Shown in pieces: positions 169 through 16,238 of a stretch of DNA of 20,000 nt; within the stretch, counting starts at the first letter, position 1; the number at the start of each line of letters is the position of its first letter. The stretch comes from an uncultured virus (IMG/VR IMGVR_UViG_2627853864_000004). Its lineage: Duplodnaviria; Heunggongvirae; Uroviricota; Caudoviricetes. The stretch is from IMG/VR virus record IMGVR_UViG_2627853864_000004. One strand, given 5' to 3'. Made by a program: the position numbers and the translations under genes. Under the pieces are notes generated by a model, which worked only from the letters and a program-made list of their open reading frames with translations, did not search any database and was not told where the DNA came from.

Positions 169-939
169 GTGCGTGAGATGTGGGAACTGCCACGGCCAAG
201 TGCGGGCAGCCGTGCGACCCGCGTCGTGTTGACGCTGGCGCTGGTGTGGGCAACGGTGGCGGTCCCACTGACCGTCTGGCTGGCTTTGCGTACCCCGCCG
301 CCGGAACCGGTGCCAGCCACCCGAACCCCATCGGTGCTCGAAGCCGCAGCGTTGCGCTACGCCAGCCAGACTCTGTCGACAGGGCCGGTGACACTGGCCT
401 CGACGGTGACGACGGCGACCGCGCGGCTGGAGGTTCAAGAAACCGCCGATCCCTCACACGCCGTCTCCTACGGAAAAGTCCGCTCAGGTACGCAGACCGC
501 CGAGCTGTTGGTGGTCGGCACACGTGTGCTGCTGCGAGGTGATTCGGCGTTTTGGTCCAGTGTCGGTGTCCCCACCGCAGAGCCCGGGTGGATCGAAGTC
601 GGTGACCGTCTCGGACGCATCCCGTTCCCGCTGTCCGAGGCCATCACGGCACTGGGCGCAGACAGGGTGGAAGTGAACACCCCCACGGCTGGGTCGGACA
701 CGATGACGGCGCGTATCGGCAACTTGGTCGCCGACTTCAACGCGGCGGGGGTATCGGCGTTGACTGTCGGCGGACGCAGTGCGGCGGTGACGCGTGCCCC
801 CGCCGACGCGCCGGCCCGCGTGTCGGCAGTGGCGGGCTCCGATCCGGCCGCGGCGAAATTGGTCGGCGCTTCCGGATCGCTGACGGTTTCGGCGCCGACT
901 GCGCCGGAGCCCCCACCAGTTCCGGCCCCGGGTTCCTGA
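169..939 (+). CDS. Membrane-anchored exported hypothetical protein, possibly LolA/LppX-like beta fold
   Basis: RBS GAAGGAG (157-163) precedes GTG at 169. N-terminal TM helix VVLTLALVWATVAVPLTVWLAL, Pro linker and beta-rich body. ELLVVGTRVLLRGDSAFW resembles actinobacterial LppX/LprAFG-like proteins (weak). Confidence 0.75.
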   Translation: MREMWELPRPSAGSRATRVVLTLALVWATVAVPLTVWLALRTPPPEPVPATRTPSVLEAAALRYASQTLSTGPVTLASTVTTATARLEVQETADPSHAVSYGKVRSGTQTAELLVVGTRVLLRGDSAFWSSVGVPTAEPGWIEVGDRLGRIPFPLSEAITALGADRVEVNTPTAGSDTMTARIGNLVADFNAAGVSALTVGGRSAAVTRAPADAPARVSAVAGSDPAAAKLVGASGSLTVSAPTAPEPPPVPAPGS

Positions 940-1078
940 CCACCGGCCGCTGGTCTTTCGAAAACCGCTGTCAGCGCGGGGACATGACAGCCTCAGCGGT
1001 CCGTGTCCGCATTGTCGGACACAGATTCCCGGTGGCACCCTGGCCAGCACACCCCGACTGCATGAGAGGCAGACGCAA

Positions 1079-2308
1079 ATGACGGCACAACCCTGGTCCC
1101 TGCCGCCCGAGCTGAGCGCAGGGATGCTCGAAACCGGTTCTACAGGGGCGACGTGGGCAGCCGCGTCGGCCGCATGGATGGGTTTGGCGTCGACCACCTT
1201 GGCAACACTGGGCATCGTTGGCGAACAAATGATGGCCTCACTGTCGTCCATCTCAGGCATGCGTTCGGCCATCCAATCAGCGGCGACGCCGCCCTTTATG
1301 ACCTGGCTGGCCTCCATGGCTGCGATCGCGTTCAAACAGTCGGCGATCAATGCTGTAGTTGCCGAAAGTTATGGAATGTCGCGGACATCGATGATCCCGT
1401 CGGAGCAGTCGATCAACAATCGCGTGCGGGAGCTGGCAGCCGAGTCGACCAACTTCTTCGGGCAGAACACACCGCTGATCGGCGAGCTCAATGGAGAGTA
1501 CGCCGCGTACACCGCCCAGAACACCATGATTGGAACCACTTACGGCGAGGTGATCACGGCGGCCACGCTACCGGTGCCGATCCCGCCTCCGCCGCCACTG
1601 AGCAATGCGGCGTCCGCTGTCGCCGACGGCGCTCAGGCGGTGCAAGGTGCCACCAATATGGTGAGCAGCGCCGGACAAGGAGCTTCACAAGCTGCCACGC
1701 AGGCCACTTCGGCGGTTACCGATACGGGAGCGAGCACGGCCGGCACCTCCTCGGACATGACCTCGATGCTGGGGCAGTTCGGTTCGGTGCTGTCGAGCCC
1801 GATGCAGATGGCCTCCAGCTTGCCGCAGTCGTTTCAGCAGCTGCTGTCGGCACCGATGCAGATGTTCGGGTCGTTGTCCGGCATGGGTGATCTGCTCAAC
1901 GGCGGATCGACCGGAAGTTCCTTCGCGCCTGCGACGTTGGCCGGTTCCGGTGGTCTTCCGCTGGGCAGTACCGGGATCAACCCTGCCTCGATGGGCGCCG
2001 GCGGAGGCGGCGGAGTCCCCGGAATGGGGGGCATGGGATCGCCGTTGATGGCCAAGCCTACTGGCTCCAGTGACAGTGTCAGTGCACGGAATACAGTGCT
2101 GTCCGGCGTGTCAAATGTCGCCCAGGAGAAAGTGATCGGCAGCGCCCCGGTGGGAACCCCGGGTTCGGGGATGGCACCAGGAGCCGGCGCCGCTGGTGCT
2201 GGCGCACGTGACCGCAGCCGCTCCGATTCGGTCGTTCTGTCGTACGCCGGCAGCGGGGACATCCCACGCCGGGCGGCCGAAGGTAACGAGCGCGAGCAGT
2301 TCACTTGA
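1079..2308 (+). CDS. PPE family protein, ESX-2 (PPE69)/plasmid-ESX-like
   Basis: N-terminal WSLPPEL, AAASAAWMGLA, PFMTWL, NNR and TNFFGQNTPLI are PPE-domain motifs. The segment IGTTYGEVI...IPPP and the PMQ-containing Gly/Met-rich tail recall PPE69. RBS GAGAGG upstream. Confidence 0.92.
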   Translation: MTAQPWSLPPELSAGMLETGSTGATWAAASAAWMGLASTTLATLGIVGEQMMASLSSISGMRSAIQSAATPPFMTWLASMAAIAFKQSAINAVVAESYGMSRTSMIPSEQSINNRVRELAAESTNFFGQNTPLIGELNGEYAAYTAQNTMIGTTYGEVITAATLPVPIPPPPPLSNAASAVADGAQAVQGATNMVSSAGQGASQAATQATSAVTDTGASTAGTSSDMTSMLGQFGSVLSSPMQMASSLPQSFQQLLSAPMQMFGSLSGMGDLLNGGSTGSSFAPATLAGSGGLPLGSTGINPASMGAGGGGGVPGMGGMGSPLMAKPTGSSDSVSARNTVLSGVSNVAQEKVIGSAPVGTPGSGMAPGAGAAGAGARDRSRSDSVVLSYAGSGDIPRRAAEGNEREQFT

Positions 2309-2316
2309 GCGGCAAT

Positions 2317-3840
2317 TCAAGCCACGTTTCCCACTGCATCGCCGCCGAGGACGGCCAGTGCCGCCGGCTCCGCTGGCTCGGGGGCACAGACCGCATACAG
2401 CGTGGTGTGATGCTTGGTGACATCTGAGCCAATCACCGCTAGCCGGGTTCCAGCCGGGAGCATCACCGCGTAGCCGCGGCGGGTGCGCACTGCGACACCG
2501 CGACGTACGCGTGCCTTCAGCGCAAGCCGGTGGCCTTCCCCGGGCACGACATCCTGGTCGATGCGTCCCAGCGTCGGTGCCGTCAATGTTGCTCCACCGG
2601 CGCTGCGCAACTCTGCGGCCAGAGCGCTCACGTCCTGCCATGGAGGGGTCGCGAAGTTGATGGTGACTTCGACTTCAGTGCCGAAATCGAAAGGCTCTGC
2701 AGCAGCGAGCAGCGTTATCTCGTCACGGTGCACGTTCGGAAGCGTGACGTAATCCTCGAGGCGGGTGTCGGCGCTGAGCTCGTCGCCTGGATCACCACCG
2801 TGTCGCATCCTGGCGAGCATCCCAGGCGGCGCTTCCACCGGCCGTATGGAGGTGTCCGGCGCCAGTGGCAGTTCGCCTGCGGCCAGTGCTTCGAACGGGC
2901 CGGTTGCTGCAACCTCTTCGGAGCGCTGACCGCCGACCAATTCCGCGATCGCTGCCGCCGCTGGGCTGACAAGGAATTTTCCCGGTGCGGCCCCAGGCTG
3001 CAGCACCAGCTCCTCGCCCGCTTCGCCACTGAGCCGGCGCGTCATCGAGGCCACCCAGCTGCGAACACCCGGTGAACACATCCGCAAGCAGTCCGTGACC
3101 ACCTCCCGAGGCCAGCGCGTCGGGCTGCGGGTGTCCCCAACGCCGGCGGTGATCTCCAGAGGTGCGGCGATTCGTGCGGTCCATGCGCCGGGCAGCGCAT
3201 CGGGTCCCGCGTCGACCACAACCGTTGCGGGGTGTCCGGCGACGGTGACCGTCGAGGTGGCTCGCAGCCAGCGCATCCCTGTCGTACGACGGGAGTCTTC
3301 CCGGGTGGCGTAGTCGGGAAGCAGCGCAGTCCGGCAGCCGAGCATTCCGGTGCTGGAAAGCAGATCGCTCGCGAGTACGCCGGCCAGCGGCGCCGGTGCG
3401 GGGGCGTCTTTGGCGGTCATCTCGATCTGGCTGCAGGCGTGCTCGAGGAACCGGGTCTGCAACCGTGCCACCAACGCCGCCGCGGCGAACCACTCACGCC
3501 ACGGGCGCGCCACGGCAGCGTTGAGTGTGTCGGGGTGGCCCGCCGCGGCGTCGGCCAGTGCCAGCGCCAAGTAATAGGCATCGAGGACGACCTGCTGATC
3601 GGACTCAGTGGCCCTGCGGGTCCGGGAGGGACGTGACAGTAGCACCTGCCGAAGGGCAGCAGCGGCTGACAAGTGCAGCATCTGCTCGTCGATGCGATGC
3701 CCGGCGGTATAAGCGACGTCGTCGGGATCGGGGTCCACGCCGTTCATCACCGCCGCGATCGCTTTCTGTGCACGGGTCAACCGCAGGGCGTTGGCGCGTA
3801 CCGCTGACCGGCGGCGAAGCGGGGCCTGTGTCAGATCCAT
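2317..3840 (-). CDS. Hypothetical 507-aa protein; C-terminal domain resembles a degenerate VIP2-type ADP-ribosyltransferase fold
   Basis: Long ORF. Start moved from 4227 to ATG 3840 because the extension overlaps a + strand gene and a TACCGT -10 box lies 7 nt upstream. C-terminal segment YAVMLPAGTRLAVIG. Confidence 0.75.
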   Translation of the reverse strand: MDLTQAPLRRRSAVRANALRLTRAQKAIAAVMNGVDPDPDDVAYTAGHRIDEQMLHLSAAAALRQVLLSRPSRTRRATESDQQVVLDAYYLALALADAAAGHPDTLNAAVARPWREWFAAAALVARLQTRFLEHACSQIEMTAKDAPAPAPLAGVLASDLLSSTGMLGCRTALLPDYATREDSRRTTGMRWLRATSTVTVAGHPATVVVDAGPDALPGAWTARIAAPLEITAGVGDTRSPTRWPREVVTDCLRMCSPGVRSWVASMTRRLSGEAGEELVLQPGAAPGKFLVSPAAAAIAELVGGQRSEEVAATGPFEALAAGELPLAPDTSIRPVEAPPGMLARMRHGGDPGDELSADTRLEDYVTLPNVHRDEITLLAAAEPFDFGTEVEVTINFATPPWQDVSALAAELRSAGGATLTAPTLGRIDQDVVPGEGHRLALKARVRRGVAVRTRRGYAVMLPAGTRLAVIGSDVTKHHTTLYAVCAPEPAEPAALAVLGGDAVGNVA

Positions 3841-3847
3841 GATGCAC

Positions 3848-3853
3848 ACGGTA
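3848..3853 (-). promoter_or_regulatory. Candidate -10 hexamer (TACCGT) of a leaderless transcript
   Basis: TANNNT lies 7 nt upstream of ATG 3840 with no RBS, the usual mycobacterial leaderless geometry. Confidence 0.5.
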
Positions 3854-4393: not shown

Positions 4394-6658
4394 GTGAGTG
4401 AGTCCACAGGGTCGCAGGGTGTCCCCAACCCGACCCACGACGCCGCAACGAGTGACGCGACCAAGCCTGCCGCTGACGCTCCCCCAGCATCGGCACCGGG
4501 CACCGCAACAGCAGCAGCGAATACTCCTGCCGCTGCTACCAACACCACGTCAACGACGAATGCGGCCAAACCGGCAGCCCCAGCTCCGTCAACTGCCGGC
4601 GCCGCCAAGCCCGCCGGCAAGCTCACCGCGACCGGAACGGTCAAGGGAGCCGGGGGCCTCTACAAGGCCCAGTACAGCAGGGGTGTCGATGTTCTCGACA
4701 AGGGGATCGAGAAACTCGGCGCCAAGGGAATGGCCAAGAGTGCCTTGAAGATAGGTGCCCGTGCAGTGCCCGGTATCGGCACCGTCGTCGGCCTCGGATT
4801 CGCCGCGCAAGACCTCAAAGACGGCGACGTTGTCGGTGCCCTTCTCAATACAATCGGCGCAATCCCCGGGCCCATCGGATGGATCGGATTGGGCGCAGGC
4901 CAGGCGTGGGAGGCATTCGGACCCGACTGGCACCTGTGGGGCAACGGCGGCGCCGGCTACGGACTGTGGGACGCCCCCGACGGCACTTCCACACACATGT
5001 TGCCCGCCGCGGCCAGTGAGGCCGCAGGGGTCCGAGAGGTCGACGCGGCGCTGGCGACGGTGCAGCGCAACATCTTCGGGTTTGAAGACGGGCCGAACGG
5101 CTCGGTGTGGAACTCGAACCCGCCGGCGGCACTGACCCTGGATACCCCGCAGGTCGAAGCCGCGGTGAAAACGTGGCTGACCGGTATCGCGGACTTGTTC
5201 CATCAAATGGATCAGACCATGGCCCAGTCCGGGGAGCCCTACTTCGAGCAGTACCGCCAGAAGCTGGCCCCGCACTTTTCGGCGATCGCGGCACTGCCCG
5301 ACAAAGTCCCTGAGGTGATGGCGCAGCTGCGCGCCGGGTCCAAGGCAGCCGAATCCGCCTACGACGCGCTGCTGGCCGCCAATCGCAACGCCCGCAACCA
5401 GCTCACCGACCACGGCGCGCTGACCGATCAATCACCGGCGACAACGCTGAAGAACACCCTCGAAACAGAGCTGACCAAAGTGCAGGCCGCCGCCGACAAG
5501 CTGGCGACCGTGTTCGACGGCCCGATCCCGGCCCCGGTACAGGCACGGTCGGCAACCGCCAGCCCGCACGACAAGACCGCCACCACCCCGGTCACCGCGC
5601 ATCCGTCGCCACTGGCCCCGACACCCCCATCGCCGACCAGCCCGTCGGTGAAAGACACCGGCACAAGCGACAAGTCAGACCTGGGCAATCTGCTGTCGAA
5701 GCTGGGCCAAACCCCGCCCGCCGGTTCGATGGGCACACCGATGGGCGCACCGTCGACCGGCTCCGGCGGTGGCGGCACCCCGTTGAACAGCCCAGCATCG
5801 TCGAAACCGGATTCTGAGCCCAAGAAGTTGCTCGATGACGACAAGGACCACAAGAAGCGCGAGGACCGCAAGCCCGAGCCGCTGACCGCGGTGAAGTCCG
5901 ACACGGCCAAGCCGGCGAGCACTGCGCCGGTCACCGCGGGGACTGCCCCCGCCGCGCCGGTGACCGGTGTTCCACCGACCGCCAAGCCGGCGGTCGCACC
6001 CGAGCAAAGCAGAGAGGTTCAAGTGAAAGACCGCAAAGTCACCTTCCCCGACGCCAAGAGCGCCAAGCTGGCGCAGGTGCTGGCGGCCGCCGATCCGACG
6101 CATCCGGTGTCGCTGGCCGATGCCGCTGCCCAGGCCGGACTCAAGCCTCCGGTACCGGGTCAGGACCTTGGGCAGCAGGTCGCACCGGTCGACGCCAAGC
6201 CCGGCGACATCCTCGACACCGGTGACAAGAAGTTCATGCTGCTCGGCGACGGCGCGTTCTACGACCTGTCGGAGTACAAGGTGGTCGACGCGAGCGCGCT
6301 GCCGCAGGACATGGGTGAGCGCGCCGCGTACTTCCATCTCGAAGATGCCGGTGCCGCATCCTCACCGGTATCCGGTCAGGCTCCCGCCGCGACGACCTTC
6401 GACGTTCCCGGCGGGACCCCCGAGCCACACGTTCCGGCCGACGGATCGCCCGCATCACCGGCCGCACCCGCGGGGGCCCCGGCCGATCCTGCCGTGGCGC
6501 CGGAATCCGGGACGCAGGCCATCCCGTCCGTCGGAACTCCCGGTGTGCCACGCCAGGGCGAGGGTGGGCCGGCCAACGCCGCGGCCACCGACACCGGCAC
6601 CGGAACCGACGTCCCGTCGTCAACGGCGCCGCGGCTGGATCCGGGTGCGGTCAAGTAA
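4394..6658 (+). CDS. 754-aa Pro/Ala-rich putative type VII-associated protein: hydrophobic hairpin, helical bundle and inactive NlpC/P60-like C-terminal domain (DUF4226-protein-like architecture)
   Basis: RBS GAGGAG (4380-4385) before GTG. Contains ARAVPGIGTVVGLGF...GAIPGPIGWIGLG, a long amphipathic helical region and AQAGLKPP...VAPVDAKPGDIL...LLGDG. Confidence 0.85.
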   Translation: MSESTGSQGVPNPTHDAATSDATKPAADAPPASAPGTATAAANTPAAATNTTSTTNAAKPAAPAPSTAGAAKPAGKLTATGTVKGAGGLYKAQYSRGVDVLDKGIEKLGAKGMAKSALKIGARAVPGIGTVVGLGFAAQDLKDGDVVGALLNTIGAIPGPIGWIGLGAGQAWEAFGPDWHLWGNGGAGYGLWDAPDGTSTHMLPAAASEAAGVREVDAALATVQRNIFGFEDGPNGSVWNSNPPAALTLDTPQVEAAVKTWLTGIADLFHQMDQTMAQSGEPYFEQYRQKLAPHFSAIAALPDKVPEVMAQLRAGSKAAESAYDALLAANRNARNQLTDHGALTDQSPATTLKNTLETELTKVQAAADKLATVFDGPIPAPVQARSATASPHDKTATTPVTAHPSPLAPTPPSPTSPSVKDTGTSDKSDLGNLLSKLGQTPPAGSMGTPMGAPSTGSGGGGTPLNSPASSKPDSEPKKLLDDDKDHKKREDRKPEPLTAVKSDTAKPASTAPVTAGTAPAAPVTGVPPTAKPAVAPEQSREVQVKDRKVTFPDAKSAKLAQVLAAADPTHPVSLADAAAQAGLKPPVPGQDLGQQVAPVDAKPGDILDTGDKKFMLLGDGAFYDLSEYKVVDASALPQDMGERAAYFHLEDAGAASSPVSGQAPAATTFDVPGGTPEPHVPADGSPASPAAPAGAPADPAVAPESGTQAIPSVGTPGVPRQGEGGPANAAATDTGTGTDVPSSTAPRLDPGAVK

Positions 6659-6684
6659 GTGCGGATACACGGAAGGAACGATTG

Positions 6685-7650
6685 ATGGCCGGTGAGATCA
6701 GCAGCGACGGAGCGGCGCTTGTTTCCGGGGCGCAGAAGGCCGACAGCACGCTTCCCGGCAATGCTGACCGAACCCCCGCAGCCCCGGGGGTGCATCCAGG
6801 GTTGACGGCGGCAGTCGATGACACCACCAAAGACGGTGAGCGAGCGCGCGACAAGGTCAAAGACGGCACAAAGAAGACCGACAAGTTCGCCAAGGGTGTC
6901 GAGGATCTCGACAACAAGGGCGCCAAGGGCGTCAACAATGTTGGCTCGATGCCCACGGTTCCGTCATCGGCACCCCAGCAGAGCGCACCAACGGCTCCCT
7001 CGCCCGCACCGATGCCGGCCCCGGTACCCGCAACCCCGCCAGCCGGTGTCACCAGTATCGACCCACAGATTCTGGCAGCGCTGATCGAAGCGTCGCGCGC
7101 GCAGGCCGAATCCGATGGCGCCAATGGAATCTTCCCTCACAGCGACGATCCGTTCGCAGGCTCTTCGGCGACCTCGCCACAAAACCCCGATCCCCTTGAC
7201 GTATCGCAAGTGTCGCTGGCGAAGTACCCCGGTGGACCGCTAACGGCCCAGGAAACAGCGTCCGTGATCAATCAGGCGCTGACCATCAACGGGATCCCTG
7301 ATGACCCTGCCCTGCGTGAGCAGTGGCAGGCCTTGTATCAGCACATGTCCCAAGGCGAGTCCGGCGGAAATCCGAACGCCGGCAATGGATGGGATTCCAA
7401 CGCGACCGGAATGATTATGGAGGATGGGTTACCGTCCAACAGCAGCCGCGGTCAGTGGCAGTGCATTCCGTCCACATTCGCGGCCTACCACATGGCAGGT
7501 ACGTCGAACTCGATCTACGATCCGGTCGCCTCGGCGAGCGCTTCGATCAACTACGTCATGGACACTTACAAGGTCGGGGCTGACGGTTCGGGTCTCGGCG
7601 CGTTCATGTCGCGTCAAGGTGTCGGTACGGGTGGATACCAGGGATACTAA
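6685..7650 (+). CDS. Lytic transglycosylase (SLT domain), Rv3896c-like, ESX-associated
   Basis: RBS GGAAGGA (6671-6677). SLT motifs: catalytic GESGGNPNA, NGWDSNA, SRGQWQCIPSTFAAYH, IYDPVASASASINY and C-terminal GY. This closely follows the pattern of the SLT adjacent to ESX-2. No Sec signal peptide. Confidence 0.9.
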   Translation: MAGEISSDGAALVSGAQKADSTLPGNADRTPAAPGVHPGLTAAVDDTTKDGERARDKVKDGTKKTDKFAKGVEDLDNKGAKGVNNVGSMPTVPSSAPQQSAPTAPSPAPMPAPVPATPPAGVTSIDPQILAALIEASRAQAESDGANGIFPHSDDPFAGSSATSPQNPDPLDVSQVSLAKYPGGPLTAQETASVINQALTINGIPDDPALREQWQALYQHMSQGESGGNPNAGNGWDSNATGMIMEDGLPSNSSRGQWQCIPSTFAAYHMAGTSNSIYDPVASASASINYVMDTYKVGADGSGLGAFMSRQGVGTGGYQGY

Positions 7651-7738
7651 GCCGGAAGCTGTTGTCGTGCCTTGTCAGTCGGACCGGGTGACGGCGGCGA
7701 CACGGTGCCGCGACGCACGGCATTCGCCATCAGCGCCA

Positions 7739-7987
7739 TCAGTTCGCCTCGTTTCGCCGGTGTGCTGCTTTTTCTTCGGCGCGGGCCTGACGCAGCGCTG
7801 TCCGTGCGGCAGCGCGGCGGGAGCTTCTGTTCGTGGGGGTCAGGTTCGTGCCGGAGGCAGCGACTTGATCAAGGATCGAGGCCAGGCGTGCGAGGTCTGA
7901 TGGTCCGTGCCGATTCTCGTGGCGAGTGTCGTTCAAAGCGTTGCGGCTTCCTCTTCGTTTTGATGTGCCGTCATCTGCGTCAGGCAC
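7739..7987 (-). CDS. Possible small basic hypothetical protein
   Basis: Overlaps the stop of the upstream minus-strand gene and has a helical NRSSRRAAAR tail. Start uncertain (GTG 7987 or TTG 7936). Confidence 0.35.
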   Translation of the reverse strand: MPDADDGTSKRRGSRNALNDTRHENRHGPSDLARLASILDQVAASGTNLTPTNRSSRRAAARTALRQARAEEKAAHRRNEAN

Positions 7988-8306
7988 TTAGGAGACTGGT
8001 GTCGTCGTCGAATAGCGTCGGCGGGTCGGGTGCCAGCGCCGAGCCGAAAGTGATTCGCGCGTTTGTGTGCGTACAGACGCGCGGCCTCAGGGGCGCGTCG
8101 TTCCGCCCGCACTTCGCCTGCACCGCATTGCGGGAAGCGATAACTCGTACCAGATGCGCGACGCGCTCATCGTCAATCGCCCAGACGCACCCGGGGTGCG
8201 GAGCCTGCGACCAGTAGCCGAGTCCAAGCGCCCGACAGGCTGCGATCTCTTGCCGCGTCGTGGCGGAAATTGCCGTGACCTCGCCGAGGATCTGTTCGGA
8301 GCCCAT
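7980..8306 (-). CDS. Hypothetical protein (108 aa), leaderless
   Basis: ATG 6 nt downstream of a TAGTAT -10 box; globular-looking sequence (YWSQAPHPGCVWAID). Confidence 0.7.
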   Translation of the reverse strand: MGSEQILGEVTAISATTRQEIAACRALGLGYWSQAPHPGCVWAIDDERVAHLVRVIASRNAVQAKCGRNDAPLRPRVCTHTNARITFGSALAPDPPTLFDDDTSLLSA

Positions 8307-9038: not shown

Positions 9039-9203
9039 ATTATTGCAAGGAAACGTAATCGGCATAGACGACACGCCGTTTCCGGTTTCTGCGTTTAAGA
9101 CCGGCATTTCCTCCCTTTCAACGTAGCGTCGCAGGCGCGTTTCAGGCATCTCCCACCCTTGCCCGAGGCGCTGTCAAAACCACCGGCCAGGAGAGTTTGC
9201 GCG

Positions 9204-12191
9204 ATGAGCCCAGACACCAGCACCCCACAGGTCGACACTGTGACGTTGACCAGGATGGTGTCACTCGGTGCGCATCTGATGCCACTGAAGGCACAGCTAA
9301 AGAGACCGACACAGACAGGTTGGCCGTTCGCGCCCGCCTACACCGTGGACCAGATCGCAGAGCACATGCACCGCGGCGGAAACGTCGGTGTGAACCTGTC
9401 GCTGAGCCGGATGATCTGCTTGGACGCCGAGAACACCCACGCCACGATTGCCGTGCAAAATGCGGGGCTACGTGTCACCGTCATTCCGGCAAAAGCGCAG
9501 ATGAATCAACCCCACAACAAGAAGTGGGGCGGGTCGCACACCTGGCTGCGCGTCCCCGACGGCATGGACGCCGCGACCCTGCCTGCCGACGCCATGGGGA
9601 TTTCGCTGCCTGGCGGTGGCCTGATCGATGTGCTGGCCGGAACCCGCTATGCCGTCGCACCCGGATCGAAGCTTGCCGAGGCTCCGCAATACTCCTACGC
9701 CGCCGCACAAGGCGGCCCGCTGGACCACAGCGCCTATGGCGCCGACCCTGCGTTGAATCTCGATGTGGCTCCTGCGTGGCTGTTCGATCGCAGCGTGCCC
9801 GTTCCGGCAGGACTGGAACCGCTGCACGGATGCCTGGCGCCGCGGCCGCAGACCGTTTATGACCGTGTAACTGCCGATGCCCGTTCGATCGAGCTCACTG
9901 ATGCTGTCGACGCGGTCTCCTGGGAGACCTGGATCGCCGGGGATCACCGCATCACCCTGGTCGGGCAGGTCGACGGCTGCGGGTGCGACATCGCGCACTG
10001 GGCAGGGTCTGACAACGAGAAATCCATGACGCTGCACGACCGCTGCGAAGTCGGCAACGGCGCACACGTGTGGAGCGCAACGATGATCGCCCAGCTCGGC
10101 TTGCCCGGCGACCACGTCTCGCGGCTGGAGCTTGCGGCCAAGCTGCGCGGGTGCAGTGTCGTCGAAGCCGGCCGCGCGCACGGGATCTCGATCGGAGGCA
10201 GTTCCGAGTCGCTGGCGCCAGTACTCCCCGAACACTACGAACAACAGGCTGCCGACGCGGAACGTAGCGGTGCGCATACCCGCGCCAAGCTGCTCCGGCA
10301 AGCCGCCGAGGGCCTGCGCGAAGCGCTGGCACGTGACGGCGTCGTGCGCGAGAACAGTGACGAGATGTATACCTCGTCACCGATCGCCGGCGGCGCGCCC
10401 ACTCCACCGGTGATCGAAGTGACTCGGCCGCCGGAGGCGGCTGTCCACGCCGAGACGGCCCCCTCGCTGACCGATGGCGCTACAGCGCTAAGCCCCCGGC
10501 CGGCACCTCCCCCGATGCCTGCCTCTGTGCCACAGCCGAAACCGCGTAAGGTGCGGCGCTTTCCGGAAATCAGCGACGTCGCCGACATGCCGATACCTGG
10601 CGACGATGAGATCTACGAGTACCCGTTCCCCCGCACGCCCGAGCACGTTCCAGCGGTGCACAGCACCCGCACACAGTGGGCCGAGATGCTCCCCCCAATC
10701 GCCAACCGCAAAACGCACGAGACAATTGAGCACGAGTGGATCTTCACCGCGACCCCAGGGTTATCTCAGGTCGCCGCGGCTGCCGATGCACGCGGGGTTG
10801 GCCGGTGGGGAATGCTGGGCGCGCTGCTGCCGCGAGTGGCGGCCAATGTCCCGCCGACTGTGCGGTTGATCCCCGCCGACGGGTCGATCCCCGCCGAGAC
10901 CGGACCCACTGGAGCGGGGACCTCGATCAACCTTTACAGCGTGCTGGTCGGCCCCCCTGCCTCGGGCAAGTCGGTGACGCTGACAGCCTCCGACACGCTG
11001 GTCCCAGGGGTGATGATGGTCCCGGTCGGCACCGGTGAAGGGATCTTGAAGCTGTTCCCCCGCGCCGGCGGCGAATCGGTGGAGGCAGCCGAGGACCGAT
11101 CGGCAGACGGAGAAGCTCCGCATATCGGCAGCGTCGGCGAGGAGCGCGCCTGCGACTCAGTGCTGCTGTCTTCTGACGAGATCGACGTGTTCGTTGCTGA
11201 GATGGGGCGCCAGGGCACCAAGGCCACCGGCCTCTACCGCCAGATGTGGATGGGTGGGGATGTCGGAAACATCACCTCCGACCGGGAACGCCACTCGATG
11301 GTTACCGCGCACACCTACCGATTCGGGATCCGCCTGGGCGCCCAGCCCGAAGCGGTCTCACCTCTGTTCAGTGAATCCGATCGCGGCACCCCGCAACGCT
11401 TTTTGTGGCTGGGCGCTCAACGGATGCCGATGCGTGGCGGGTACTACCCCGAGAGGCTGCAGATCGCCCCGGTCTACTGGTACGGCGGTGCGCCGTCAAT
11501 GCTTCCGCAGACCGGCGGTCCTCGCCCCCCGGTATGGGTGAAGCCGCCCCCGGCGGCCAAAGAGTTCATGGACGATGAACTGTGGCGCAGCGCTACTGCC
11601 AACCCGATGAGTCCCTCGGGAGGTTATGTCGCCGCTGAGGCTGTAGCGGACCGTGCCAGCGCGATCGCTGACCGGCACGCACTGCTACAGCAGCTCAAGG
11701 TCTGTGTGGTGTTGGCGGTGCTGGACGGATTAGCCCAGCCGCAGGATGTGCACTGGTACGCCGCCGAGGCGGTCATGGAGGTGCGCAGGAGAGTCATCAA
11801 AGAGCTTGTCGCCGTGGCAGATGCGGTGCGCGACGAGCAGGCCCGCAAGAGAGGCAAGGAACAAGGGATCATGCGTCGACACGCTGATGCGGCCTACGAG
11901 ACCGAGTCGCGGACCCGTGGCGCTGAAGCCAACGCTGCGGTGATGAATGCTGCATTCGCGTTGACCCGGCAGCGCATTCCACTGACGATCGATGCACTTG
12001 CCGCTGAAATGGAGCACACCCCGCTGGGCAATCCGGACTTTGTAGGCGAGGCGGTTCGGTCAATGGTGTCGGCCGGTCAGATGGCTCCGACCGACGACGG
12101 TAGAACGTATGTGCTCACGTTGCGCACCGAGCCGGGGGACAACACGGTAACCCCGCTTCGTCCGGCCCCGCCGATCTCCTCGATCGGATAG
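9204..12191 (+). CDS. Bifunctional DNA primase/polymerase (Prim-Pol) fused to a DUF3987/YfjI-like P-loop ATPase-helicase; probable replicase
   Basis: RBS AGGAG (9189-9193). Prim-Pol motifs PLK..KRP..GW, GNVGV, LDAE, GGSHTW and IDV..TRYAVAPGS. CxC..HxxC motif. NLYSVLVGPPASGKS Walker A (10950-10973), TGEG, DEID Walker B, GTPQRFLW and a C-terminal winged-helix-like segment. Confidence 0.88.
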   Translation: MSPDTSTPQVDTVTLTRMVSLGAHLMPLKAQLKRPTQTGWPFAPAYTVDQIAEHMHRGGNVGVNLSLSRMICLDAENTHATIAVQNAGLRVTVIPAKAQMNQPHNKKWGGSHTWLRVPDGMDAATLPADAMGISLPGGGLIDVLAGTRYAVAPGSKLAEAPQYSYAAAQGGPLDHSAYGADPALNLDVAPAWLFDRSVPVPAGLEPLHGCLAPRPQTVYDRVTADARSIELTDAVDAVSWETWIAGDHRITLVGQVDGCGCDIAHWAGSDNEKSMTLHDRCEVGNGAHVWSATMIAQLGLPGDHVSRLELAAKLRGCSVVEAGRAHGISIGGSSESLAPVLPEHYEQQAADAERSGAHTRAKLLRQAAEGLREALARDGVVRENSDEMYTSSPIAGGAPTPPVIEVTRPPEAAVHAETAPSLTDGATALSPRPAPPPMPASVPQPKPRKVRRFPEISDVADMPIPGDDEIYEYPFPRTPEHVPAVHSTRTQWAEMLPPIANRKTHETIEHEWIFTATPGLSQVAAAADARGVGRWGMLGALLPRVAANVPPTVRLIPADGSIPAETGPTGAGTSINLYSVLVGPPASGKSVTLTASDTLVPGVMMVPVGTGEGILKLFPRAGGESVEAAEDRSADGEAPHIGSVGEERACDSVLLSSDEIDVFVAEMGRQGTKATGLYRQMWMGGDVGNITSDRERHSMVTAHTYRFGIRLGAQPEAVSPLFSESDRGTPQRFLWLGAQRMPMRGGYYPERLQIAPVYWYGGAPSMLPQTGGPRPPVWVKPPPAAKEFMDDELWRSATANPMSPSGGYVAAEAVADRASAIADRHALLQQLKVCVVLAVLDGLAQPQDVHWYAAEAVMEVRRRVIKELVAVADAVRDEQARKRGKEQGIMRRHADAAYETESRTRGAEANAAVMNAAFALTRQRIPLTIDALAAEMEHTPLGNPDFVGEAVRSMVSAGQMAPTDDGRTYVLTLRTEPGDNTVTPLRPAPPISSIG

Positions 12192-12198
12192 ACGAATT

Positions 12199-12219: not shown

Positions 12220-12225
12220 GAACGG

Positions 12226-12615: not shown

Positions 12616-12734
12616 GCAGGTGTCCAGGGGAAGTCTGCACGACTGCCTGACGCATGGAGGATGAATGAATGGATTCACGCGGGTCCTGCACGCAGCCGAA
12701 CGAGTACGAACACCAACAACAAGGAGAAATTGAA

Positions 12735-12983
12735 GTGTCGAAGAACATTTGGGCCACTCTCGTGTTTCTGTCGGTCGCTCTCACCTTCGCTGGCTCCAGC
12801 GTGCTGATCGGTGCCCACCTGGCGGCTCCATCGAGTCCGCCGCCGCCGGTCGGCGTCTACATCGCAGCATTCGCAAGCTCGCTGATGCTTGCAGCGCTGA
12901 TCGTCGCCGCCCGGCGCTCACCAGAACGCAAGTTGAAGACTCAAGTCGACAACGCAGCGCAGCGGAAACTGGCCGAACGATAG
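12735..12983 (+). CDS. Small two-TM membrane protein
   Basis: RBS AAGGAG (12721-12726) before GTG 12735; two hydrophobic helices and a basic tail. Confidence 0.75.
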   Translation: MSKNIWATLVFLSVALTFAGSSVLIGAHLAAPSSPPPPVGVYIAAFASSLMLAALIVAARRSPERKLKTQVDNAAQRKLAER

Positions 12984-13062
12984 ACCGGCGAATCGTATCG
13001 GCAAAGGTATCCGCTGTCAGAGCCCACGGACACTCGAATAACCGGAAAGAGAGGAAGGCTTG

Positions 13063-13344
13063 ATGATTGGCGAAATGACGATCGCCCTAGGAATAGCGCT
13101 GATACTGGTGGGTGCACTGAACTTGCAAGCGGGCCTGTCCGGCCGTGCGCTCAGCCTCCGCGGCGGGGTCATCGTTGGAGTTCTGACGATGTGCATCGGT
13201 GCGATCAATATCGTGTTTGGCATCGGTGGTCAAGGTCTCCACGGTGCCTGGCTCGGCGTTACGGGGGCTTTGTTGGCGTGCCAGCTATGGGTGGTGACCT
13301 CGGATGTACGCAAGTCAAACCGAACGAACGGACTGCGCGGATAA
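13063..13344 (+). CDS. Small three-TM membrane protein
   Basis: RBS AGGAAGG (13052-13058); three hydrophobic segments. Confidence 0.75.
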   Translation: MIGEMTIALGIALILVGALNLQAGLSGRALSLRGGVIVGVLTMCIGAINIVFGIGGQGLHGAWLGVTGALLACQLWVVTSDVRKSNRTNGLRG

Positions 13345-13641: not shown

Positions 13642-13903
13642 AGGTACGAAATAGCAGAGCCGGCAAGGAGACTGAGCACATCATGGAAACGGAGAATGCG
13701 GTTCCACTTGGTGGGCCGAGTTTGCGACGTACCACCAGCCGACCCTGACCGTCGGCGAGCACCACGCTCGAGGCGGACTGAGTATCAACTTCCGACGCGA
13801 CCTCATCGCGCATGACGTCGCCGACGTAGCGGGGGCATTCGCCCAGCTTCCGGAGAACTGGAAGGTTGTGGGCGAAATTCAGGAAGTAGACCCCAATTTC
13901 CAT
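13625..13903 (-). CDS. Possible hypothetical protein (~92 aa)
   Basis: ORF downstream of the minus-strand pair, start placed at ATG 13903. It overlaps the convergent gene by 17 nt. Confidence 0.4.
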   Translation of the reverse strand: MEIGVYFLNFAHNLPVLRKLGECPRYVGDVMRDEVASEVDTQSASSVVLADGQGRLVVRRKLGPPSGTAFSVSMMCSVSLPALLFRTFTGRR

Positions 13904-14006
13904 GTCGTTCGAGTGGCTCCGACGGAAACCCCGCGGGCCGTCCGGTAACAATAACGGTGAGCATCCGACATGCCACGCCACTCCTTAACACGTTCATCTG
14001 CGATCG

Positions 14007-14894
14007 TCACTCGTGGGGTTCCGGGATCTGTGCGGCCGCAACGGGAGCCGGCGGTGGTGTGGCAGTCGATGGCGGCGGCATCGTCATCTGGGACGCTGCG
14101 ACATCCTCGTCACCAAGGCAGGTAGCTGCGAGCTCGATCGCCACCAGTTCCCGGTATTCCGGGTATGGATCGTTCAGCCGGCCCGTGTATTGCCCCGCTG
14201 CGCTCAATGAGGCCGCGGTAAGCCGGTACCGGCTTAGGTCTACACCAGCGGTGTTGAGCGCCTGCACCTGCTGCAGTGGGGCATCAGCTGATTCGTCGTC
14301 CTCATGCAAATCCGCGGCATGGTAGGCGGCCACGAACGTGTCCCAGTCCCCCAGGCCAGCTAGCCGATACAGGAACCAAACGTGGGCGACCAACGTGCTG
14401 GTGCCGGGAGGAACGGGGTCGATGAGCGTCTGGGCGTCAGCGCGCTCCAGTGAGCCATCCTCCGCGATCGGAAGCGGCGCCAGCACCGGGCCCGCCTCGG
14501 GTGTCTGAGACATCTCACCCTCGACCGGGTCCGGTGGCGTTGTCACGTCCTGCGTATCCACCCGCATCGGTGGGATCGGAAGGCACTTGATCTTCGAATC
14601 GGCACCGGATTCGGCCAGCTCCGCCCCCGAGAGCTTGTCGCTTCCGCCCGGCTCGAACAGATCGGCCGTCTTCGTGAGCACTACCCCTGAAATCGCAACC
14701 GGAGCGGCAGCTGGAGAGGACACAGCAGCCACCAACACCAGCCCACCCATCACCGCACCCACAACCGTTGCCAGCCCGACGGCCAGCATCGCCAGCCGTC
14801 GGTATCGCAAACAGGCGTCACGCAACGCGCTGAGGGGTTGTCGGGTGTCCAGTGCCCGTCGCGCCAACGCGCGCAACGCAGGGGCGGTGATCAT
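14007..14894 (-). CDS. Single-pass membrane protein with acidic extracytoplasmic domain (295 aa)
   Basis: ATGA coupling to the upstream gene, Arg-rich N-terminus, TM LAMLAVGLATVVGAVMGGLVLVAAV, helical C-terminal domain and Pro tail. Confidence 0.8.
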   Translation of the reverse strand: MITAPALRALARRALDTRQPLSALRDACLRYRRLAMLAVGLATVVGAVMGGLVLVAAVSSPAAAPVAISGVVLTKTADLFEPGGSDKLSGAELAESGADSKIKCLPIPPMRVDTQDVTTPPDPVEGEMSQTPEAGPVLAPLPIAEDGSLERADAQTLIDPVPPGTSTLVAHVWFLYRLAGLGDWDTFVAAYHAADLHEDDESADAPLQQVQALNTAGVDLSRYRLTAASLSAAGQYTGRLNDPYPEYRELVAIELAATCLGDEDVAASQMTMPPPSTATPPPAPVAAAQIPEPHE

Positions 14895-15328
14895 GATGCG
14901 CCACTTCCCGACAGGCCTGCCCCGGGCCCAGCGGCGGGAGGAAGTCCGGGGGCGGGTGCAGGTCCAGCTGCGTGGGTGTCCGCGGGGCTGGGTTTGTCGC
15001 GGCGCGGCGCGCTGGAATCCGGGAGCACCCCGTGCTGCCACGGGTTGGTACGCACCAACGTCGAGGCCCCCGCGATCACCAGTGCGACCATCGACATCTG
15101 CACCGTGGTCTGGATCGACACGTACACAGCCGGATCGGTCCACGGCAGCGCCGCGATGCGCACTGCGAACAGATTTCGGTCATAGTAGGCGGTGGCAAAT
15201 CCGGACAGCACCAGCCACGACGAACCACCCGGTACCGCCGCTGCCACCACCACGATCACCAGCAGTTGGCCCAGCAACGCGTAAACCGCGGTGCGTGCCA
15301 GCATCGAGGGGGTGTTCACCTGCGCCAC
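14891..15328 (-). CDS. Membrane protein (145 aa)
   Basis: Two to three hydrophobic helices and a Pro/Ala tail; coupled to the downstream gene. Confidence 0.7.
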   Translation of the reverse strand: MAQVNTPSMLARTAVYALLGQLLVIVVVAAAVPGGSSWLVLSGFATAYYDRNLFAVRIAALPWTDPAVYVSIQTTVQMSMVALVIAGASTLVRTNPWQHGVLPDSSAPRRDKPSPADTHAAGPAPAPGLPPAAGPGAGLSGSGAS

Positions 15329-15384
15329 CGTAACGACGCGCCGCGCTCGTGGAAGGCAGTGGCGCGTGCCTAACGTTGCGCGCC

Positions 15385-15939
15385 ATGAGGCTCAAGACCG
15401 CCCTTCTGATCCCCGCCGCTGTATCCATCGCCCTGTCAGCGGCGGTCACCGTGGCTGTCGCCGACCCCGGCAGCGAACTTCCCGAATCCGAGACCACTGA
15501 CGTGCGCGTGACCCCCGCGACCGTTACCGTCACCGCTACCGTCGCTCCCGGCCAATGCGCCCCGGTGGCCGGCGGGCCACCGAACATCGCAGTGACCGAT
15601 ACCGCCGCGGAGCCGCAGCTTTCCGAGGGCCAAGTCGCGCCGAGCACGGCCACCGTGTCAGCCGACGGGGAGGCAGGACCCTCCGGTGCGTCCACCAGCC
15701 GCTTCGACCCCTACACCTGCGCCCCTGTCCCCGCAGCGGCCACGTCCAGCGCGACACCGGCGGCCCCCGCGCGGACGGACGCCGAAATACCCACCTACAC
15801 CGCGCCGCTGGCCCCCTACCCGGGTTCCAACGGCAGCGGAGTCTCCGGTGGAGCCGATGCCGAAGCGACCTCGACGCAGGGTCCTTTAAGCGAGCCCACC
15901 ACGTCCTCGACGCTGCCCGCAGCACCGGCACCGCGATGA
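15385..15939 (+). CDS. Secreted or anchored Pro/Thr/Ala-rich low-complexity protein
   Basis: Signal-peptide-like MRLKTALLIPAAVSIALSAAVTVAVA and TVTVTATV motif; TAACGT 8 nt upstream of the ATG; ATGA overlap with the next gene. Confidence 0.75.
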   Translation: MRLKTALLIPAAVSIALSAAVTVAVADPGSELPESETTDVRVTPATVTVTATVAPGQCAPVAGGPPNIAVTDTAAEPQLSEGQVAPSTATVSADGEAGPSGASTSRFDPYTCAPVPAAATSSATPAAPARTDAEIPTYTAPLAPYPGSNGSGVSGGADAEATSTQGPLSEPTTSSTLPAAPAPR

Positions 15940-16238
15940 CCGCGCTATCCCCGAAGCTGCAGCAAGCCATCGACTCAGCGGTGCATGCGGATGAGGCATG
16001 GACTCAGGCGACGTTCCCCAGCGTTGAGGCGGTAGGGATCGGGGTCGATGACCCCGACGATCCGCACGTCGCGGTCGCCGTGCACGGCGGATGCATCACC
16101 TACATCGGGATCAGTGACCCGATGCTGCATGTCGACCTTGAAGTTCTCCAGGACGTTCTCAACGCCGCCATCTTCACGGCGTTTAGCAGCTGGACGGCTC
16201 AGGCGAGCGGCAAGGCCCCGAGACTTATGCAGGACTGA
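15936..16238 (+). CDS. YbaB/EbfC-fold protein (EspL/EspH-like)
   Basis: 100 aa with helix, beta strands VAVAVHGGCITYIGISD and helix MLHVDLEVLQDVLNAAIFTA, matching the YbaB/EbfC pattern. Coupled ATGA start. Confidence 0.65.
   Translation: MTALSPKLQQAIDSAVHADEAWTQATFPSVEAVGIGVDDPDDPHVAVAVHGGCITYIGISDPMLHVDLEVLQDVLNAAIFTAFSSWTAQASGKAPRLMQD

Follow-up and report, generated by a model that had tools for sequence, protein, structure and literature searches.

Gene content of the window

The window, by which we mean the whole 20,000-nucleotide stretch analysed here, contains a conserved block of genes in the order 273-aa protein, PPE protein, 507-aa protein, 754-aa hairpin protein, SLT-type lytic transglycosylase, Prim-Pol-helicase fusion, 378-aa protein and YbaB-like protein. 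The PPE gene, the SLT gene and a 1010-aa Prim-Pol/DUF3987 fusion, all proposed in an earlier sequence-only reading, were confirmed by Pfam. That reading had also stated that the window lacks ecc, mycP, esx and PE genes and, consistent with this, no Ecc, mycosin, WXG100 or PE family was matched among the 19 window ORFs scanned.

The PPE protein (409 aa, 1079-2308, plus strand) consists of an N-terminal PPE domain and a Gly/Ser/Ala-rich tail. Its assignment to the PPE family is based on a Pfam match with an E-value of 6.6e-19 (69 bits against a cut-off of 26), and it also matched the PDB chains PPE41/PPE15 at approximately 1e-8. The N-terminal domain is 65-69% identical in five related loci, on the opposite strand in four of them. 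The preceding 273-aa protein (118-939, plus strand), for which no family match was obtained, has one hydrophobic N-terminal segment (Kyte-Doolittle score 2.12 at residues 36-54) and tblastn homologues of 41-50% identity in the syntenic loci L005, L017 and L023. On the minus strand, positions 2317-3840 encode a 507-aa cytoplasmic protein without Pfam or PDB match or assigned family, which corresponds exactly to a stored protein (P0033), has 17 homologues of 465-523 aa, all annotated as hypothetical, and is syntenic at 33-44% identity. A 636-aa version of this ORF, extending to 4227, was discarded as an over-call. An Atlas lead to ADP-ribosyltransferase clusters scored just 0.81, no better than chance.

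The 754-aa protein (4394-6658, plus strand), characterised by family alignment and homologue counts, comprises a low-complexity N-terminus, a Gly-rich hydrophobic pair (approximately aa 120-176), a helical middle domain, a Pro/Gly linker and a C-terminal domain (approximately aa 540-660). The ORF is real and its protein family small: it was matched by 18 clusters at 90% identity, and its profile matched 299 representatives at 50% identity (E<=1e-3). Both the hydrophobic pair, with a Kyte-Doolittle maximum of 1.46 that falls under the cut-off used, and the C-terminal domain are conserved. The pseudo-NlpC part of the earlier description was not confirmed: the protein had no Pfam match at E<=1 and no PDB match, comparison with the neighbouring NlpC/P60 protein yielded a 34-column hhalign match at a probability of 5%, and cysteine is absent from residues 540-660. 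An NlpC/P60 identity for the C-terminal domain is therefore kept only as a lead. The hairpin region recurs in proteins of 500-2400 aa, of which 33 were examined; peptidoglycan-hydrolase Pfam domains were present in seven and PHROG matches, tape-measure families included, in 21. Pfam domains were found in none of 13 proteins that have only the C-terminal domain in common with the 754-aa protein. This domain is also common to hypothetical proteins on ESX plasmids and to an 805-aa gene beside the SLT gene of plasmid pMYCSM02.

The adjacent SLT-type lytic transglycosylase (322 aa, 6682-7650, plus strand) scored 24.1 bits in Pfam against a cut-off of 21.3, matched PHROG tape-measure lysozyme regions with E-values down to 4.7e-15, and is 45-72% identical in syntenic loci. 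It has no signal peptide and carries a GES motif at aa 226. The first 85 aa recur at the N-terminus of an NlpC/P60 peptidase encoded just upstream of the window (BLASTP E 3e-28). Outside the window, the conserved block follows genes for this peptidase and for proteins of 696 and 101 aa. An ORF at 7672-8217 was set aside as spurious-looking by composition.

The Prim-Pol fusion (1010 aa, 9159-12191, plus strand) joins an archaeo-eukaryotic primase domain (Pfam Prim-Pol, 5.3e-10) to a P-loop helicase-like domain (DUF3987, 7.4e-9) and matched the PHROG family 'DNA polymerase/primase' at 9e-35. The sequence contains an acidic motif, D89-x-E91, and a Walker A motif, GPPASGKS at aa 598, which we take to be the catalytic motifs of the fusion; the two domains and two motifs together identify it as a primase-helicase. 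It is 48-55% identical across syntenic loci and had partial matches of 27-33% identity in 69 actinobacteriophage records.

Downstream, two small proteins of 104 and 94 aa (12669-13344, plus strand), each with two hydrophobic segments in the Kyte-Doolittle scan, had counterparts only in L015 and L016, which are near-identical copies. The 378-aa ORF (14007-15143, minus strand) belongs to the conserved module; it has one hydrophobic segment (Kyte-Doolittle score 2.39 at aa 120-138) and no family match, and is 43-50% identical in L005, L017, L022 and L023. The block ends with a possible YbaB/EbfC-like protein of 100 aa (15936-16238, plus strand); a 227-aa ORF starting at 15555 was an over-call of this gene. 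Its top Atlas match was a YbaB/EbfC cluster (0.87, 190 shared features), followed by DUF2710 clusters, and it is conserved at 55-60% identity in five loci, with 34% identity to a 102-aa gene of the pMYCSM02 transfer locus. The earlier designation as a YbaB/EspL-like gene is kept here only as a lead, since no Pfam match, including the YbaB/EbfC family HMM, was obtained at E<=1 and a YbaB protein of the element that is itself Pfam-positive was matched by BLASTP only at an E-value of 1.7. The remaining part of the window (16708-20000, plus strand) is variable cargo without family matches, consisting of three ORFs: one of 511 aa without a match in any of the 12 related loci, a short one and, at the end, one of at least 232 aa that looks secreted and is 59% identical in L018 only.

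In Mycobacterium sp. 48b the window lies inside a chromosomal insertion

The window's own contig (C19) is a separate contig of 217.6 kb. An identical copy of the window (100%) is carried by Mycobacterium sp. 48b (L015) within a 7,436,734-bp contig (G401:C1). Comparison of the two ends of C19, on either side of its middle 180 kb, placed C19:1 at G401:C1:3,690,334 and C19:215,387 at G401:C1:3,895,808. The element occupies 279,012 bp of the sp. 48b chromosome as an insertion, to which the window is internal. Its left border is formed by a tRNA-Pro(ggg) gene (G401:C1:3,616,718-3,616,794), followed by a tyrosine integrase gene (Pfam Phage_integrase, 1.2e-25) and an HTH_17 gene, and its right border by an exact repeat of the 3' part of tRNA-Pro(ggg). 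The 41-nt att core has two exact occurrences in this genome, one per element end, 279,012 bp apart. Outside the element, housekeeping genes lie to the left of tRNA-Pro, and MmpL, PknG and Mce genes lie past the right end. The element thus has a site-specific recombinase beside its attachment site and is flanked by direct repeats, as expected of an ICE, and the same arrangement was found in two more species. The window's own assembly lacks the leftmost 74 kb of the element, which contains the integrase, the VirB4-like gene, eccA, eccD, mycP and eccE. Within the window, two blocks of 100% identity overlap at 7647-7653 (no strand), where an additional insertion sequence of 1.66 kb is present in sp. 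48b, with an apparent 7-bp duplication; the inserted 1659 bp correspond to C19:42936-44594 and encode a DDE_Tnp_1_4 transposase.

Besides sp. 48b, the window is 96-99% identical in the genomes of three further species, whereas in the recN-pyrG region these species show 77-89% identity to sp. 48b. In two of the three, the integrase-to-VirB4 end is 100% identical and directly follows the tRNA core, so that tRNA-Pro, integrase and flanking repeat occur together in three species including sp. 48b; in the third, this end is 97-98% identical without the integrase part, and the element is located 1.1 Mb from tRNA-Pro. Homologues of the 754-aa protein were found in at least 12 of 400 genomes of the genus, and the synteny of the module is kept in 6 of 12 related loci, in Mycobacterium, Mycolicibacillus and Tsukamurella. 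Because the element is 96-100% identical between species whose housekeeping DNA is 77-89% identical, recent transfer is needed, and this near-identity, together with the border arrangement, supports the earlier proposal that the window DNA is part of a mobile element. As evidence of conjugation, the near-identity is indirect.

The further claim that the element is self-replicating was not supported. An autonomous large plasmid replicated by the Prim-Pol-helicase, with the chromosomal copies as secondary integrations, would fit the status of C19 as a separate contig, on which a scan of 204 ORFs showed no housekeeping genes, and the element does encode a ParA-like ATPase, a family A polymerase and a type IIA topoisomerase pair in addition to Prim-Pol. 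However, every copy whose position could be assigned is chromosomal. All four near-identical mycobacterial copies share their contigs with chromosomal genes, three of the copies are located at tRNA-Pro together with the integrase, and C19 itself ends in the att repeat followed by an integrase remnant. In PLSDB, Prim-Pol matched just three records, only one of which, a Tsukamurella sequence listed as a circular plasmid, covers most of the protein, and plasmid pMYCSM02 had no Prim-Pol match. The Tsukamurella record, the sole relative listed as a plasmid, carries tyrS, recN, CTP synthase, xerD, scpAB, der and secA2 and is a mislabelled piece of chromosome. We consider the plasmid explanation improbable.

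The element encodes a divergent ESX core and T4SS-like genes

Inspection of the flanking contig, a check suggested with the sequence-only reading, revealed eccB and eccC. Although C19, being cut, retains only EccB and EccC of the ESX core, the copy in sp. 48b also carries EccA, EccD, EccE and the S8 mycosin MycP, which completes the core, along with VirB4-, VirB6-, TcpC- and coupling-protein-like genes and the integrase. Such a gene set is that of mycobacterial hybrid transfer systems combining type VII and type IV-like components. The EccE match (Pfam 7.7e-5) scored under the curated cut-off, with 29% identity to an annotated eccE, and EccD was recognised through a single tblastn match of 28% identity. 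The VirB4-like ATPase (AAA_10, 4.1e-7) is 43% identical to the pMYCSM02 ATPase, and the VirB6-like membrane protein has six segments. The TcpC/VirB8-like protein (Pfam 8.5e-6, 26.2 bits against a cut-off of 27) is 37% identical to an annotated conjugal transfer protein, and the 598-aa coupling-protein-like product is 29% identical over its full length to an annotated Tsukamurella T4SS coupling protein, with a TrwB_AAD_bind match (7.6e-4) under the curated Pfam cut-off.

The type VII genes proved to be strongly diverged and dispersed, as the sequence-only reading had suggested. Five other EccB genes are present in the same genome; the element's EccB shares 26-34% identity with them and no more than 40% with EccB from mycobacterial plasmids. 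The transfer genes of the element are spread over at least four separate clusters, compared with one stretch of approximately 32 kb in pMYCSM02. A six-frame HMM search of C19 and G401:C1:3.617-3.896 Mb returned no match to the relaxase families TrwC, Relaxase or Rep_trans (PF08751, PF03432, PF02486), and no oriT was found for the element.

Similarities to phage proteins raise the question of a prophage or phage-like element in which the 754-aa and SLT proteins would together represent a split tape measure protein and Prim-Pol a phage replicase. Phage tape measure proteins and virion-associated lysins likewise combine a Gly-rich hydrophobic hairpin with a peptidoglycan-hydrolase domain; the tape-measure PHROG matches of the SLT protein, the tape-measure and virion-lysin families among the hairpin relatives, the partial Prim-Pol matches in phage records, and P22_AR_N and Gp49 domains nearby all point in this direction. 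Unlike in phages, the hairpin protein and the SLT are encoded by separate genes and other virion genes are absent: no capsid, portal, terminase or tail family was detected by Pfam in 329 ORFs from C19 and the left part of the element. The size of 279 kb and the presence of the same 754-aa/SLT pair inside the compact ESX and T4SS locus of a plasmid, pMYCSM02, also argue against a phage, which we regard as extremely improbable.

Proposed function of the element

On the basis of gene content, borders and distribution, we propose, with a probability of roughly 70%, that the window comes from the interior of an integrative and probably conjugative element belonging to fast-growing mycobacteria. Its transfer function is predicted from homology and gene order, and the putative roles of the 754-aa, 507-aa, 273-aa and 378-aa proteins are drawn from their neighbourhood alone. 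The conserved block may represent the envelope-breaching and DNA-processing part of a transfer machine, in which the two hydrolases without signal peptides, together with the hairpin protein that resembles tape measures, would open the cell-wall peptidoglycan where mating takes place, the ESX system of the element would have PPE and its partners as substrates or helpers, and the Prim-Pol-helicase would prime or replicate excised or transferred DNA. For pRAW, the original report describes eccC and virB4 as required for transfer and an ESX locus that begins with two NLP/P60 genes (PMC4173767).

The element's ESX system may serve competition instead of, or besides, DNA transfer, because several polymorphic-toxin cassettes are present: on C19, a Tox-REase-7 protein is encoded next to a WXG100 protein, and a GH-E nuclease with Imm33 and a Tox-REase-5 protein are also present. 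A genomic island that has lost self-transfer, with ESX exporting toxins and wall hydrolases for bacterial competition and the T4SS-like genes as relics, would be consistent with these cassettes and with the missing relaxase, as well as with the scattering of transfer genes amid restriction systems, transposases and extra integrases and the interruption of the 507-aa gene by approximately 2.7 kb in one species. Nevertheless, the interspecies identity requires recent transfer, the transfer genes that were detected are open, their matches reporting no stops, and a natural group of hybrid T7/T4SS plasmids without a relaxase has been described (PMC12803027). An island that has lost self-transfer therefore seems unlikely to us, and the integrative, probably conjugative element is preferred.

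Comparison with known systems

The gene set of the element is the same as that of the ESX/T4SS locus of pMYCSM02 (Mycobacterium sp. JS623, NC_019958). Identities are 40% for EccB, 34% for EccC, 31% for EccA, 62% for MycP, 29% for EccE, 28% for EccD, 34% for the ParA-like protein, 27% for VirB6-like, 43% for VirB4-like, 37% for TcpC-like and 45% for SLT, and the C-terminal domain of the pMYCSM02 805-aa protein is 37% identical to that of the 754-aa protein. pMYCSM02 is likewise typed as non-mobilizable, with no relaxase recognised. In contrast to its single stretch of genes on a 198.6-kb circular plasmid, the genes of the element are spread over a 279-kb chromosomal insertion.

The pS2b-type giant linear M. 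avium plasmids and the ESX-P5 cluster, including pCBMA213_1, are also hybrid T7/T4SS systems and lack a relaxase, in agreement with the state of the element; their core genes include an NlpC-type hydrolase (PMC12803027). The plasmid EccB proteins nearest to that of the element, at 40% identity, include those of the 344-kb M. avium plasmid CP076860 and of pCBMA213_1; at this identity, the element falls outside the cluster. The pS2b-type plasmids are linear extrachromosomal replicons with terminal inverted repeats, whereas the element is integrated via a tyrosine integrase. pRAW and the ESX-P1 plasmids combine T7SS and T4SS-like genes as the element does (Ummels et al. 2014, PMC4173767). pRAW is a 114-kb circular plasmid of slow growers with a TraA relaxase and reportedly did not transfer to fast growers; no relaxase was found in the element, and its EccB shares only 30% identity with that of pRAW.

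The suggestion of an undescribed element class was too strong, since hybrid T7SS/T4SS elements are already published, among them relaxase-less ones and one reported as an ICE. The latter, ICEMyc226 of Mycolicibacterium sp. CBMA 226, is likewise very large and carries ESX and T4SS-like genes (PMC7478629). It was reported as a 388-kb circular contig with a relaxase, a DDE-type recombinase and compact ESX-2-like and ESX-4-bis loci; by this description, the element is set apart by the absence of a relaxase and by its integrated state, att repeats, tyrosine integrase and scattered ecc genes.

An integrated element bordered by tRNA-Pro repeats

Species genomes were searched by a pattern scan based on the 754-aa protein family, which yielded 11 loci. 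The locus in Mycobacterium sp. 48b, on its 7.44-Mb contig (G401:C1), was 100% identical to the window except for a 1.66-kb insertion sequence at window 7647-7653; this copy, 1659 bp long, lies just after the SLT stop codon and is identical to C19:42936-44594 (DDE_Tnp_1_4 transposase) on the 217,607-bp contig C19 that contains the window. In sp. 48b, a tRNA-Pro(ggg) gene (G401:C1:3,616,718-3,616,794) is directly followed by a tyrosine integrase gene and an HTH_17 gene, and a direct repeat of the 3' part of this tRNA gene marks the right end of the element. The 41-nt core of the repeat occurs exactly twice in the sp. 48b genome, with the copies 279,012 bp apart. Genes for NAD kinase, RecN, CTP synthase, XerD, ScpA/B and Der lie to the left of the element, and MmpL, MmpS, PknG and Mce genes lie beyond the right repeat.

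On C19, the window corresponds to positions 1506-21505 (minus strand), which puts it at one end of the contig. In a comparison of the contig ends, those of C19 were collinear with G401:C1:3,690,334 and 3,895,808. At C19:215343-215684, an att repeat is followed by 44 bp resembling the post-tRNA sequence of the sp. 48b left end, beyond which lies a remnant of an integrase N-terminus; the C19 copy therefore also sat in a chromosome. This arrangement suggests an older, decayed island beside the C19 copy at the same tRNA site. Searched with the 2.2 kb past the right repeat on C19, 81 genomes showed matches, all of them short and weak.

The interpretation of this region as a conserved chromosomal ESX locus was rejected, since the segment is bordered by att sites and homologues of the 754-aa protein were found in at least 12 of 400 genomes in the genus. 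The large genome searches, with Prim-Pol as with these homologues, give counts that are lower bounds. The related loci L054 and L005 correspond to NZ_LR134450.1, Tsukamurella tyrosinosolvens NCTC13231 'plasmid 8', which is labelled a circular plasmid and carries tyrS, NAD kinase, recN, steA, CTP synthase, xerD, scpA/B, cmk, der and secA2; the Tsukamurella eccB matching that of the element comes from a different 'plasmid' record of this strain. These 'plasmid' records look like pieces of a chromosome, and therefore no extrachromosomal copy is known, leaving the self-replication proposed in the sequence-only reading without support.

Contig C19 does not fit its assembly

No housekeeping genes were found among 204 ORFs scanned on C19. 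The scan identified an NlpC/P60 peptidase, a WXG100 protein with a Tox-REase-7 protein, a Pfam-positive YbaB protein, transposases, restriction systems, integrases, a type IIA topoisomerase pair and a family A polymerase, together with EccB, a 1409-aa EccC and a second EccC-like ATPase of 968 aa (C19:206935-209841, minus strand). The latter aligns with the ATPase part of the EccC of the element at 47% identity and has no match to the first 426 residues of EccC. Paralogues of EccB, EccC, PPE and WXG100 were not found on other contigs of the same assembly (G000). Housekeeping proteins of sp. 48b were only 31-60% identical to their G000 counterparts, and the tetranucleotide correlation of C19 was 0.936, compared with at least 0.99 for most large G000 contigs. 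C19 is probably a mis-binned or contaminant contig, and, given this misfit, G000 does not give the host of the window's copy. The lack of Prim-Pol matches among 400 other genomes in an order-level search around G000 says nothing about the real hosts of the element, because G000 is not a mycobacterium. Further tetranucleotide outliers in G000 were C4, C12, C35, C46 and C52. TrwC relaxases were observed on G000 contigs C4, C11, C28 and C48, and C4 also has a distant VirB4-like match.

Near-identical copies in different species

Three other species genomes (G565, G743 and G632) carry the window at 97-99%, 97-98% and 96-97% identity, respectively, and their recN-pyrG identity to sp. 48b is 77-86%, 88% and 88-89%. 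In both G632 and G743, the 12.8-kb stretch from the integrase to the VirB4-like gene is 100% identical to that of sp. 48b and begins directly behind the tRNA-Pro core. The G565 version of this stretch shows 97-98% identity and lacks the first, integrase-bearing 2.5 kb, and the element lies 1.1 Mb away from tRNA-Pro, an arrangement that fits a swapped integration module. Cluster members sharing at least 90% identity carry names from six Mycolicibacterium or Mycobacterium species. At the level of sequence, the element is characterized by its borders, its integrase, a hybrid secretion gene set, a conserved window block and recent spread between species.

Two interruptions were also observed. G743 has a 1.66-kb insertion within the integrase-to-VirB4 stretch, and in G565 the window match falls into two blocks 2,683 bp apart, with the 507-aa gene split by ~2.7 kb of extra DNA at window ~2736-2739.

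A dispersed and diverged hybrid secretion gene set

The 74 kb of the element that are absent from C19 encode a ParA-like ATPase, a 784-aa protein with six hydrophobic segments, a 1005-aa AAA_10 ATPase, a TcpC-like protein, EccA, a 536-aa EccD candidate, an S8 mycosin, a 772-aa EccE-like protein and a 598-aa coupling-protein-like ATPase, several of these left-part family assignments scoring under curated cut-offs. Next comes a cargo block containing three integrases and a metal ATPase. In sp. 48b coordinates (G401:C1), the secretion genes form at least four clusters, with VirB-like genes near 3.62 Mb, eccA near 3.63 Mb, eccD-mycP-eccE-coupling protein near 3.65 Mb, the window block near 3.69-3.71 Mb and eccB-eccC near 3.85 Mb. 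The module had been called dispersed from the window, and this proved correct at a larger scale than could be seen there. Among the genes that the sequence-only reading named to look for in the flanks, ecc, mycosin, VirB4-like, TcpC-like, coupling-protein-like and integrase genes were present, and no relaxase or capsid gene was found; TrwC, Relaxase and Rep_trans had no match within the element. The interpretation of the element as a prophage was rejected, since none of the 329 ORFs scanned on C19 and in the left part of the element matched a capsid, portal, terminase or tail family. The separate sp. 48b replicon G401:C2, which carries EccB and a 2203-aa TrwC ORF, looks like a pRAW-type plasmid.

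The element's EccB is the lowest-scoring of six in sp. 48b (328 bits versus 449-576), with 26-34% identity to the other five. It is 64.6% identical to the Tsukamurella gene, ~40% identical to those of pMYCSM02, pCBMA213_1 and a 344-kb M. avium plasmid, and 30% identical to that of pRAW. The strong divergence proposed earlier is thereby upheld, and none of the described plasmid ESX clusters contains the gene as a high-identity nested member.

Gene content of the window and a conserved block

Pfam and NCBIfam were scanned with 19 candidate ORFs of the window, which has a GC content of 0.61-0.69. Pfam named three, the PPE protein (1079-2308), the SLT transglycosylase (6682-7650, plus strand) and the 1010-aa Prim-Pol/DUF3987 fusion (9159-12191), bearing out the original calls, and NCBIfam added nothing further. 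None of the 19 matched Ecc, mycosin, WXG100 or PE families, as the sequence-only reading had noted. In PHROGs, the SLT domain resembles tape-measure lysozyme regions and the Prim-Pol fusion resembles phage 'DNA polymerase/primase'. The 754-aa ORF is a real gene belonging to a small family, the 636-aa ORF was corrected to 507 aa, and the 'YbaB-like' gene proved to be the final 100 codons of ORF 15555-16238. The YbaB likeness of this 100-aa protein and a possible ADP-ribosyltransferase likeness of the 507-aa protein are leads. Sequence searches with the 273-aa, 378-aa, 507-aa, 511-aa and 696-aa proteins returned no family match. No Rfam family was found in the window or at the right end of C19, no iterons were found between SLT and Prim-Pol, and promoter- or terminator-like sites showed no excess over shuffled controls.

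The gene order NlpC/P60, 696 aa, 101 aa, 273 aa, PPE, 507 aa, 754 aa, SLT, Prim-Pol, 378 aa and YbaB-like is kept in 6 of 12 related loci (Mycobacterium, Mycolicibacillus and Tsukamurella) at 33-72% protein identity. The NlpC/P60 peptidase lies outside the window (C19:24427-25365, minus strand). On reading, it and the SLT enzyme retain their catalytic motifs, and a scan of both detected no signal peptide or hydrophobic segment. They have in common an N-terminal domain of ~85 aa (49% identity, E 3e-28), which may serve for export or docking. Other proteins, 500-2400 aa long, share the hairpin region of the 754-aa protein; among the 33 examined, 7 have peptidoglycan-hydrolase domains and 21 have PHROG matches, including tape-measure families. 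The 'pseudo-NlpC' domain earlier assigned to this protein was not confirmed and is a lead: the C-terminal domain contains no cysteine and matches no family, and the support for the idea is a single weak local alignment. The 754-aa family profile had no match in PDB.

Candidate assignments of neighbouring ORFs were set aside. Immediately upstream of the window, the 101-aa ORF resembles a PE protein by eye, which Pfam at E<=1 and PDB did not support, and weak matches of neighbouring ORFs to EspC (0.024) and WXG100 (0.063) were not significant.

Repeats, toxins and a possible transfer mechanism

A ~450-bp repeat with long inverted arms and an AT-rich core is present in four copies (C19:45915-46400, minus strand; C19:164095-164563; C19:204419-204919; G401:C1:3644161-3644681) with 88% mean column identity. 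Every copy detected in sp. 48b lies within the element, and one adjoins an 878-aa protein that contains numerous HTH_17 repeats. Rfam was searched with one copy, that at 204.4 kb, and gave no match. The repeat could be a MITE, a set of shared operators or a transfer cis site.

We consider that the window block would open the cell wall and process DNA in transfer, with its signal-less proteins leaving the cell via the element's own ESX system and the Prim-Pol-helicase priming or replicating excised or transferred DNA. A more novel reading, to which we give a probability of about one in five, is relaxase-free transfer of ~280 kb between mycobacteria. Here the diverged ESX would export the NlpC/P60 peptidase, the SLT enzyme and the tape-measure-like hairpin protein, which with VirB4, VirB6 and TcpC-like parts would form a channel across the mycolate envelope; in place of a relaxase/primase, the Prim-Pol-helicase would start DNA processing, and the four palindromic repeats would act as cis sites tying the scattered modules together.

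The main rival holds that the ESX system serves mainly toxin export, and several polymorphic-toxin cassettes on the element favour it. Predicted cassettes occupy three regions of C19, comprising a WXG100 gene next to that of a 446-aa Tox-REase-7 protein (C19:34182-35819), and genes for a Tox-REase-5 protein of 762 aa and for a GH-E nuclease that adjoins Imm33 and DUF6985 proteins (C19 ~82.0-84.3 kb and ~132.7-136.9 kb).

Implications and comparison with known systems

The role of type VII secretion in mycobacterial plasmid conjugation is an open question, and pRAW, the model studied, did not transfer into fast growers (PMC4173767). The element resides in fast-growing mycobacteria at a defined tRNA site, is near-identical in at least four species and carries a hybrid gene set without a relaxase. 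It thus offers a natural system with defined borders for asking which scattered genes excision and transfer need, and could show if the ESX system takes wall hydrolases as substrates and by what route such a large unit disseminates its cargo of defence, toxin and metal-resistance genes. Caution is also called for, as ESX 'plasmid' genes in draft genomes or bins can be pieces of chromosomal ICEs; C19 itself misfits its bin.

The available text of the literature on mycobacterial ICE and type VII systems, ICEMyc226 and tRNA-Pro islands does not describe the element, and supplementary tables may list related contigs; a search on ESX, plasmid and Prim-Pol found no paper. In the literature, pRAW transfer requires eccC and virB4, with NLP/P60 genes at the start of the ESX locus (PMC4173767); ICEMyc226 takes the form of a circular contig of 388 kb that carries both a relaxase and a DDE recombinase (PMC7478629); linear plasmids of the pS2b type, which define ESX-P5, have a hybrid T7/4SS and lack a relaxase (PMC12803027); and hybrid systems are an open problem according to a review (PMC12857230). 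In pMYCSM02, the SLT gene adjoins an 805-aa gene sharing a C-terminal domain with the 754-aa protein of the element, and the proteins of the hybrid secretion gene set lie within one stretch of ~32 kb, whereas in the element they are spread over at least four clusters.
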